A program made the position numbers and the translations under genes. A DNA stretch of 64,000 nucleotides from SAR202 cluster bacterium (GTDB lineage Bacteria > Chloroflexota > Dehalococcoidia > Lucifugimonadales > UBA3495), in the NCBI GenBank assembly GCA_016872385.1, contig VGZV01000005.1:6578-70577 (forward strand). The letters run 5' to 3'. Shown in pieces: positions 53,841 through 54,406 of the stretch. Each line of letters starts with the position of its first letter. Positions within the stretch are counted from its first letter, which is position 1. The notes under the pieces are model-generated. The model made no database searches. It saw nothing but the letters and a program-made list of their open reading frames with translations, and was not told the origin of the DNA.

Positions 53841-54056
53841 TCAACTGCGCCTGGCCGCCACCCGGCTATCGTAAGCCTCGGTCAGGCGCTGATTAATTTT
53901 GGACACCTCTTCCACCCAGCGGAGCCGTTCCAGGTGTTCCAAGTTCAGCAGCTGTTCGTGAGACCAGTGGAGGTGGTATCCAAGGTACGCCATTTCCTCG
54001 TACAGCCGCTCCGCCGGGTAGATGGCTATGCCGCCACTGGAGCCAGCAATTCCCCC
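53841..54056 (-). CDS. DUF6760-like ORF in the -1 frame of the chaperone gene; probable frameshift extension (GT-like)
   Basis: Not in ORF track. Translates ...IYPAERLYEEMAYLGYHLHWSHEQLLNLEHLERLRWVEEVSKINQRL...*. No ATG/GTG/TTG between the slippery site and the YP..LYEE motif. Confidence 0.8.
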   Translation of the reverse strand, partial: GGIAGSSGGIAIYPAERLYEEMAYLGYHLHWSHEQLLNLEHLERLRWVEEVSKINQRLTEAYDSRVAARRS

Positions 54057-54406
54057 GGCCGGACCTCAATTCTGGCCTGGCAACCAGGGCAGGCAATCTG
54101 CCCCAGGGAGCCGGAGCCGTCATTGATGGAGCTGTAAAACTCCTGAAGGAAGGCCAGGTCTGCGGTGAACATGCGCTCCACCACGCCGGTGTTCACTTCC
54201 CGCAGGGAGCCCAAGCGGGTAATAACCCGGGACAGGATGATGATGCTCAAGTACGCCTCATTGTTCTTCACCCGGGCATCCCGCAAAGGAACAATCTCGT
54301 CCATGGCCGTGGCCAGGCGCATAGCGCCCTGGCGGTGGACAGTGCCTTCCTGGTCCACGTAGCCCTTGGGCAGCGTGAACTCATACTCGGTCTGCAACAT
54401 CGTCAT
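54026..54406 (-). CDS. Tail assembly chaperone (G-like)
   Basis: EYEFTLPKGYVD..VHRQGAMRLATAMDE, LSRVITRLG, ERMFTADLAFLQEFY, CPGC. Confidence 0.85.
   Translation of the reverse strand: MTMLQTEYEFTLPKGYVDQEGTVHRQGAMRLATAMDEIVPLRDARVKNNEAYLSIIILSRVITRLGSLREVNTGVVERMFTADLAFLQEFYSSINDGSGSLGQIACPGCQARIEVRPGELLAPVAA
54050..54056 (-). promoter_or_regulatory. Putative -1 ribosomal slippery site G-GGG-GAA
   Basis: Codons CCG GGG GAA (P117-G118-E119); a -1 slip enters the DUF6760-like frame. Confidence 0.65.

Follow-up and report, generated by a model that had tools for sequence, protein, structure and literature searches.

The 64,000-nucleotide (nt) stretch of DNA considered here (hereafter the window), from contig VGZV01000005.1 of a SAR202 cluster bacterium, carries the operon encoding an extracellular contractile injection system (eCIS), in which the -1 frameshift known from the G/GT tail assembly chaperones of phages has most likely been retained, with a short and a long chaperone made from one gene. 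To judge from the sequence, the slip would take place on a G_GGG_GAA heptamer close to the 3' end of the chaperone open reading frame (ORF), and would attach to the chaperone (G) a start-less -1-frame extension (T) carrying the Pfam domain DUF6760. An initial annotation of the stretch had proposed such a fusion. The evidence presented below comprises the anatomy of the site, the conservation of frame, phase and site among homologous loci, the absence of start codons, natural in-frame fusions, and the apparent kinship of the protein to phage chaperones.

Anatomy of the chaperone gene and its -1 frame

The genes considered here are all on the minus strand, and coordinates refer to the whole window. 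The elements on which the argument is built are the following.

54026..54406, minus strand: ORF of the tail assembly chaperone 'G', 126 residues plus TAG stop (from the ORF listing)
54050..54056, minus strand: slippery heptamer G_GGG_GAA, in the 0 frame CC[G GGG GAA], the proposed -1 slip site (from the sequence)
54026..54065, minus strand: 40-nt overlap in which the 0 and -1 frames are both open (from the reading frames)
53841..54053, minus strand: -1-frame 'T' segment, 70 codons (GIAGSSGGIAIYPAER...AARRS) plus TGA stop (from the translation)
53868..54029, minus strand: DUF6760 domain (Pfam PF20546; 62 bits, E=5.7e-17)
54026..54029, minus strand: ATAG, the -1-frame ATA (Ile) overlapping the chaperone TAG (from the sequence)
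53991..53993, minus strand: first ATG of the -1 ORF, inside DUF6760 and past the invariant YP..L..E (from the ORF reading)
54064..54067, minus strand: GAGG, 7 nt 5' of the heptamer (from the sequence)

The 3' end of the chaperone ORF reads ATT GAG GTC CGG CCG GGG GAA TTG CTG GCT CCA GTG GCG GCA TAG, which is translated as ...IEVRPGELLAPVAA*. GGG is codon 118 and GAA codon 119, giving the phase G_GGG_GAA; both the heptamer and its -1 phase, as initially annotated, are read directly from the sequence. The two-frame overlap is bounded by a -1-frame TGA (54068..54066) and by the 0-frame TAG (54028..54026), the 0 frame stopping 21 nt past the heptamer, and a slip would be confined to 54026..54065 because both frames are open only there. 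From 54065, the -1 frame, whose translation starts GPAGGIAGSSGGIAIYPAERLYEEMAYLGYHLHW... (in the longer reading, GPAGGIAGSSGGIAIYPAERLYEEMAYLGYHLHWSHEQLLNLEHLERLRWVEEV...), remains open until TGA 53843..53841; its openness had been recognised at the outset, but it extends over 74 codons, 70 of them past the slip point, and not over the 71 first counted. The predicted products are a G of 126 residues and a GT of 188 residues, the latter composed of G residues 1-118 and the 70 -1-frame codons, in agreement with the sizes originally given (126 and about 188).

With regard to the extension, the -1 ORF matches DUF6760 with 62 bits against a cut-off of 27 bits, over profile positions 2-55 and from ATA 54029 onwards, which bears out its earlier naming as a DUF6760-like ORF. 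No ATG, GTG or TTG is present in this ORF ahead of the invariant Tyr-Pro pair (YP). The first such codon is ATG 53993, nine codons past Y-P, and it does lie beyond the YP..LYEE motif, as had been claimed; initiation at this position would delete the YP..L..E part of the domain. The ATAG overlap has the same geometry as an ATGA start/stop overlap, without a canonical start codon in the window.

Conservation across homologous loci

An alignment of chaperone/DUF6760 junctions across eCIS loci, put forward with the initial annotation as a means of checking it, was carried out on 130 loci. Three sets were used, namely 43 loci from species-representative genomes, found via the chaperone; 80 metagenome loci found via DUF6760 alone, which makes them unbiased with regard to upstream content; and 14 loci from IMG/VR. 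A recognisable upstream chaperone was present in 42 of the genome loci, in 116 loci cumulatively with the metagenomes, and in 130 when the 14 IMG/VR loci are added. The comparison covers Chloroflexota, Cyanobacteria, Clostridia and metagenomes, and 112 of the loci compared are non-redundant genome or metagenome loci.

In 130/130 loci (42/42 genome loci, 116/116 cumulatively, and 14/14 from IMG/VR), the DUF6760 frame is -1 relative to that of the chaperone, whose 3' end it overlaps. This relation alone is no evidence of frameshifting, because ATAG or ATGA overlaps give the same geometry. In addition, an in-phase slippery heptamer was found inside the two-frame overlap in 112/112 non-redundant loci; the overlap is 43 nt long in the median and 13 nt at the least, and the site is present every time. 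The heptamers are distributed as follows.

GGGGGAA: 48 of 112 loci
GGGGGAG: 20 of 112 loci
GGGGGGG: 17 of 112 loci
GGGGGGA: 13 of 112 loci
Other GGGGGNN heptamers: 8 of 112 loci
AAATTTT (A_AAT_TTT; Clostridia): 3 of 112 loci
TTTTTTA/G (T_TTT_TTA/G): 2 of 112 loci
T_TTT plus AAAGGGC (locus L090): 1 of 112 loci

Further in-phase sites come from the IMG/VR loci, namely C_CCG_GGG, G_GGG with a stop codon after it, and the lambda heptamer G_GGA_AAG. Among runs of at least five G, 105 out of 106 start at codon position 3; their length is five in 68/106 and ranges from 5 to 8. For comparison, the chance of an in-phase GGGGGAR within a 40-nt window is about 0.006. The 0-frame stop is located 0 or 3 nt past the heptamer in 75 of the 112 loci, and a stop close behind the heptamer may slow decoding and favour the slip.

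Six heptamer classes replace one another at one site and in one phase, with lineage-specific swaps. Such an exchange among different but mechanistically equivalent heptamers is the recoding analogue of a compensatory change, and we regard it as the strongest argument for a functional slip site. The decisive evidence, as far as sequence comparison goes, is conservation across homologous loci and not the occurrence of the heptamer alone.

Absence of start codons in the DUF6760 frame

In 59 of the 112 loci, no ATG, GTG or TTG is present anywhere in the -1 ORF upstream of YP. The codon situated three before Y is ATA in 27 loci, ATC in 13, GTC in 12, ATG in 11, GTG in 7 and GTA in 6, and GCT, GCC, AGC and AAC also occur; judging from this series, it is an ordinary hydrophobic (Ile/Val/Met) position and not a start. 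The NTG triplets that recur at -60/-51 result from the CxxC Cys codons of the 0 frame (N|TGY), and they are frequently separated from the domain by a -1-frame stop. In locus L090, the domain lies about 150 nt past the chaperone stop, and a 50-residue linker with neither a stop nor a start codon in the -1 frame leads from it back to the T_TTT site in the overlap.

Natural fusions and the behaviour of gene callers

A search with the hypothetical 188-residue product returned about 1,600 chaperones of 123-127 residues, with, as the best match, a 177-residue in-frame fusion, P0001, the alignment covering 94% of the length of the hypothetical fusion. The P0001 junction (...MPPGGVIVYPLDRLYEE...) mirrors the predicted one, and the eCIS locus to which P0001 belongs has its genes in the identical order. 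When 1.84 billion cluster representatives (50% identity) were searched with the DUF6760 profile, 678 proteins were recovered, among which three further genuine fusions, P0171, P0196 and P0260, combine an N-terminal chaperone domain with DUF6760; in metagenomes, the domain is present in more than 598 loci.

Stand-alone DUF6760 calls of 45-100 residues are present in databases by the hundred. Among the best 150 of the 678, the start is placed inside the domain in 60 calls and within four residues of Y in 42, and 40 carry 5-30 additional residues read from the overlap; a start-less ORF would give a scatter of this kind. This pattern shows a domain that appears to be systematically mis-annotated as a separate gene, being truncated, extended or missed by gene callers. 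The four fusions, together with these inconsistent starts, lend support to the initial proposal that DUF6760 is the T part of a chaperone and not a free gene. Of note, in high-GC relatives the -1 frame is open far upstream and callers read the wrong frame of the tube and chaperone genes; P0220 (323 residues) and P0156 (133 residues) are long spurious proteins that end in a genuine DUF6760.

Proposed mechanism

We consider it very probable, from the conserved sequence features, that a -1 ribosomal frameshift produces the GT fusion in this eCIS; the occurrence of the slip, its efficiency and the binding partners of the products are what we infer. Most ribosomes would terminate at TAG 54028..54026 and release the 126-residue G, while a minority would move back by one nucleotide on G_GGG_GAA (54056..54050), where the tRNA-Gly on GGG can re-pair perfectly with the overlapping GGG. 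In a P-site variant, the slip would occur with an empty A site and GGA would be decoded next, giving the junction ...RPG-GIAG... (IEVRPGGIAGSSGGIAIYPAER); in a tandem variant, the bound tRNA-Glu would re-pair from GAA to GGA via a G:U pair, giving ...RPGE-IAG... (IEVRPGEIAGSSGGIAIYPAER). Translation in the -1 frame would then run through a Gly-rich linker and DUF6760 to complete the 188-residue GT. We expect the slip efficiency to be low, a few per cent as for lambda G/GT, because in-phase GGGGGAR is frequent in the ordinary ORFs of the genome. By analogy with lambda, the G part would coat the 1058-residue tape-measure-like protein encoded downstream, and tube subunits, whose genes lie on both sides of the pair, would be brought in by the DUF6760 'T' part, the tape measure thereby becoming the place where the tube begins to polymerise; both G and GT would be expected to be absent from the finished particle.

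The GAGG at 54064..54067 may act as an internal Shine-Dalgarno-like stimulator, by analogy and in the subgroup of the window only. As a conserved stimulator of this kind, GAGGTG was rejected, its spacing to the heptamer varying from 7 to about 20 nt between subgroups and its letters encoding a conserved F-E-V. The G run was likewise rejected as a Shine-Dalgarno sequence for DUF6760, since its distance to the candidate codon is 0-1 nt in most loci, against 22 nt in the window, and most loci are without a start. In other respects, a rare codon or missing tRNA was discarded as the cause of the slip: the genome encodes tRNA-Gly with CCC, UCC and GCC anticodons and tRNA-Glu with UUC and CUC, and GGG is not rare.

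Counter-evidence and alternative explanations

Several observations weigh against a programmed frameshift at this site, or against parts of the model built on it. In the long ORFs of this 61% GC genome (1.2 Mb), 176 copies of GGGGGAR stand in the slippery phase (xxG GGG GAR), versus 47 and 33 in the other phases. That the motif is not avoided in ordinary genes argues for a low intrinsic shift efficiency or for the need of a context, and the heptamer alone is probably a weak shifter, not in itself diagnostic. No sign of a downstream RNA stimulator came from the 90 nt past the heptamer (z=+0.66 versus shuffles), nor from RNAalifold on eight close relatives (covariation term -0.14, one compensatory pair), and single-sequence folds of the region vary between relatives. 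A start codon is present within five codons before Y in 26 of the 112 loci (12 ATG, mostly GGGGGAATGA, and 14 GTG/TTG), and an ATG stands exactly three codons before Y in 11 loci (about 10%), frequently within an ATGA overlap. Independent initiation may coexist with frameshifting in these 11 loci, and the ATA of the window, given its ATAG geometry, could conceivably support weak reinitiation. With regard to the proteins, the window chaperone scores below every Pfam and NCBIfam threshold, and the proposed binding of G to the tape measure and of T to the tube is drawn purely from analogy.

According to one alternative, DUF6760 is a free small protein initiated by termination-reinitiation at the ATA of ATAG or an ATC, or at the internal ATG 53993, the -1 relation being then the usual 4-nt overlap. 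The ATAG shares the ATGA geometry, the Pfam profile starts exactly at the ATA codon, the equivalent codon is ATG in 11 and GTG in 7 of the 112 loci, frequently within ATGA or GTGA overlaps, and the stand-alone database calls number in the hundreds. We nevertheless hold this explanation to be unlikely. More than half of the loci (59/112) have no canonical start, the equivalent codon is mostly ATA, ATC, GTC or GTA and even GCT, GCC, AGC or AAC, and many loci have their chaperone stop 15-36 nt away from this codon, or past Y. In L090, with the domain about 150 nt past the stop, the -1 frame is open and start-less back to the overlap, and a start at 53993 would remove the neighbourhood of four of the seven invariant residues (YP..L..E). 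Natural fusions are on record, and a free protein would leave unexplained the in-phase heptamer, the heptamer swaps and the fact that the -1 ORF always spans the heptamer.

The same GT protein would also result if RNA polymerase added one G within the G run, the mRNA then changing frame through a 1-nt insertion. This explanation, which we judge very unlikely, draws on the homopolymeric nature of the commonest site (5 to 8 G), and transcriptional slippage is used elsewhere in bacteria (PMC5009743). However, the codon phase is fixed in 105 out of 106 runs, and a ribosomal mechanism needs phase whereas a transcriptional one does not. Productive slippage is known for runs of about 8-9 A or T, far longer than the five G found in the window and in 68 of the 106 runs. 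Furthermore, A_AAT_TTT, G_GGA_AAG and C_CCG_GGG are not homopolymeric; they suit tRNA re-pairing and not polymerase slippage. Least credible to us, and hardly worth retaining, is an artefact or decay, with homopolymer errors splitting an in-frame fusion, or DUF6760 being a non-expressed remnant. It is true that the assembly is a draft in 111 contigs and that a few in-frame fusions are recorded, but 130 independent assemblies from different studies and phyla display the same -1 arrangement, with the 0-frame stop conserved soon past the site, and five-G runs are not error-prone in short-read assemblies. As for decay, the invariant DUF6760 residues across phyla exclude a decaying remnant. A ribosomal -1 frameshift thus remains the reading that we prefer.

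Probable identity of the chaperone

The chaperone consists of an N-terminal chaperone fold and a C-terminal zinc-ribbon-like tail of the CxxC...CxxC type. The window protein matches PHROG 508 'tail assembly chaperone' (E=7.5e-5). Among 36 members of the family, 13 match PF10109 Phage_TAC_7 (P2 E/Mu gp41), below the gathering score and with a best E of 7.6e-5, while 11 match PF12322 (T4_baseplate) and 9 match PF23746 (Gp41_Mu). Searching the PDB by sequence with the chaperone profile gave nothing useful. An AlphaFold2 model (mean predicted local distance difference test, pLDDT, of 81) finds its best fold matches in BFVD among T4-like 'baseplate hub assembly' proteins, with E values from 1e-6 to 1e-4 and a probability of 1.0, and it also matches Mu FS-gp41, the frameshift product (E=2.2e-3, probability 1.0, TM score 0.55). 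In the PDB, the best match is a weak one to YqbN (3KLU; TM score about 0.5, E=0.43), a protein from the skin element of B. subtilis that is the homologue there of XkdN-type chaperones. By modelled fold and remote sequence similarity, the protein thus resembles the P2 gpE, Mu gp41 and T4-like chaperones.

Two groups of loci illustrate variation around this protein. In the cyanobacterial loci L026-L042 (at about 2500-2900 in each), two tandem chaperone paralogues are present: the first combines an N-terminal chaperone domain with an acidic low-complexity tail, without zinc ribbon or DUF6760, and it is the second that has the zinc ribbon together with the slip site and a DUF6760 in the -1 frame. 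Locus L033 belongs to Cf. Phormidesmis sp. LEGE 11477, a cultured organism. L137 and L138, from IMG/VR, represent a phage-like locus (about 5204-6200 in L138) with a 269-residue PF12322-type protein at the chaperone position, followed in L138 by a distant DUF6760-like -1 ORF behind G_GGA_AAG and by a tape-measure-like ORF of more than 954 residues. Through this locus, the T4-like 'hub assembly' proteins are connected to the chaperone family of the eCIS.

DUF6760 as a domain

An AlphaFold2 model of DUF6760 (mean pLDDT 93.4) is a compact bundle of three helices, and the residues Y, P, E, H, W, H and R are invariant among 38 sequences. The domain has no fold match (E<=5) or sequence match in the PDB and no match in NCBIfam, and a tblastn search of 50,697 deposited phage genomes returned no match at E<=0.01. 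The possibility that DUF6760 is the Afp6/Alg6 spike plug was rejected, given its three helices and the absence of a fold or sequence match. Locus L127 (IMGVR_UViG_3300036939_000063), which carries DUF6760 and is filed as viral in IMG/VR, is actually an eCIS: its genes encode a Pvc16_N cap, sheath and gp19 tube (two copies of each), a CIS_tube+LysM protein and a VgrG, and the 12 kb that were read are free of capsid genes.

The eCIS operon

The chaperone and its -1 extension are flanked by the following genes.

54403..54843, minus strand: tube protein 1 (T4 gp19-like; Pfam PF06841, E=5.6e-35)
53268..53747, minus strand: tube protein 2 (gp19-like; Pfam PF06841, E=2.3e-42), directly 3' of the T segment
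50084..53260, minus strand: 1058-residue ORF in the tape-measure position (from the ORF listing; assigned by position only)

The component test for an eCIS of the Afp/PVC-like kind found sheath, tube, cap, ATPase, spike, wedge and LysM initiator together. The operon encodes an AAA+ ATPase whose N-domain is of the winged-helix kind, a Pvc16-type cap, sheath, a VgrG-like spike, baseplate J and P2-I, with matches to PF04984/PF17482, PF06841 (two copies), PF14065, PF22977+PF00004, PF05954+PF04717, PF04865, PF09684 and PF19266+LysM, and eCIS_core (DUF4157) cargo is also encoded. No capsid genes were found among the ORFs in the part of the window scanned. The genome (2.7 Mb, 61% GC, 111 contigs) contains one DUF6760 copy, and relatives are Chloroflexota. 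The gene order, which recurs in homologous loci, is tube 1, G, T, tube 2, the 1058-residue ORF and the CIS_tube+LysM tube initiator; the G-T pair is therefore located between a tube gene and the tape-measure position, with a second tube gene interposed. At 54403-54406 (minus strand), the TGA stop of tube 1 and the ATG of the chaperone overlap as ATGA, which suggests that chaperone synthesis is translationally coupled to that of the tube.

The 1058-residue ORF is by its position a candidate tape measure and the presumed client of the chaperone. It has no Pfam or PHROG match, its composition is rich in Arg, Ala, Gly, Ser and Pro, and a long ORF without a family occupies the equivalent position in homologous loci. 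The length of these ORFs varies (394 residues in L127, 778 in the P0001 locus and more than 954 in L138); if they are tape measures, particle lengths would differ greatly.

Between the stop of DUF6760 and the start of tube 2, a gap of 96 nt contains a strong hairpin (53786-53838, minus strand; -42 kcal/mol over a 106-nt stretch, z=-3.4, equalled by 0 of 200 shuffles), which is not followed by a U tract and whose 5' arm holds a second GGGGGAA (53839-53833). Possible roles of this hairpin are the stabilisation or processing of the mRNA, or attenuation that sets the dosage of tube 2 and the tape measure.

Novelty and significance

The -1 frameshift in tail assembly chaperones, those of contractile phages included, is classical and already known. 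Three points seem to be new, namely that it is found, deeply conserved, in cellular eCIS operons, that DUF6760 is assigned as the T part, and that the slip sites form an interchangeable series. A full-text literature search, with subscription-only papers outside its scope, returned no paper naming DUF6760 and none on a frameshifted chaperone in any contractile injection system. Recent component lists and surveys of these systems name no chaperone, and a 2026 preprint describes the length-determining mechanism of eCIS as "not well understood".

We lean towards the view that a frameshift-made GT, with DUF6760 as its tube-recruiting T part, is an essential and overlooked component of assembly and length control in a large eCIS clade (Chloroflexota, Cyanobacteria, Clostridia and probably Actinobacteria-like high-GC lineages). 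If true, this would be among the most widespread -1 programmed frameshifts in cellular genes outside viruses and insertion sequences, and a required design element for the heterologous expression or engineering of these eCIS. Where such systems are engineered for protein delivery, GT would be lost unnoticed, and assembly might be abolished, if the slip site were destroyed by codon optimisation or re-annotation. The analysis also identifies a probable tail assembly chaperone in eCIS and gives the DUF6760 family a concrete, testable role, and the six interchangeable heptamers at one site offer a natural series for slip-site requirements in non-model phyla.

Comparison with known systems

Among eCIS components, DUF6760 can be compared with the plug Afp6/Pvc6/Alg6, a protein of about 60 residues encoded beside the tube genes and essential for assembly; Alg6 consists of a strand and one helix, forms a trimer inside the spike and stays in the particle (PMC8894135). 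DUF6760 is likewise small and encoded beside eCIS tube genes, but it is a three-helix domain and is joined to a chaperone.

The T4-like hub assembly proteins (PF12322), with 250-270 residues, are about twice as long as the eCIS chaperone. Vladimirov et al. reportedly proposed in 2022, going by the title of their paper, that T4-like hub proteins are tail assembly chaperones without frameshifting. The P2 gpE/E+E' and Mu gp41/FS-gp41 pairs share with the present system a contractile-tail machine and the logic of a -1 frameshift extension, whereas the chaperone described here carries a C-terminal CxxC zinc-ribbon-like tail and its extension is a separate Pfam family, DUF6760.

The use of GGGGGAA as a slip site in phage chaperones, which the initial annotation had invoked, is documented. 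Slippage on GGGGGAA, with a G:U re-pairing rationale, is described for about a thousand chaperone genes of actinobacteriophages (SEA-PHAGES; PMC10885494), and corynephage phi16 combines an upstream GAGG with GGGGGAA, a predicted pseudoknot and a proposed internal Shine-Dalgarno sequence (PMC5506516). The heptamer is identical in these phages and in the window, and the GAGG of phi16 parallels the one located 7 nt upstream of the heptamer here. These siphophage chaperones are, however, unrelated in sequence, and phi16 has a predicted pseudoknot where none was found in the window.

The G/GT mechanism itself has been reviewed, with a ratio of about 30:1 between the two lambda products (PMC5009743). 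The present system differs from lambda in being a cellular contractile injection system and not a virus, in its G_GGG_GAA heptamer, and in the second tube gene that stands between T and the tape measure; its T part is the three-helix DUF6760, without detected similarity to solved structures, and its chaperone has no detected sequence similarity to lambda gpG. The resemblance lies in the arrangement: in both systems, overlapping ORFs are located between tube and tape-measure genes, the downstream ORF is start-less and in the -1 frame, and the heptamer is near the 3' end of G with no strong RNA stimulator evident. Some relatives, L137 and L138, even use the heptamer of lambda, the identical G_GGA_AAG.

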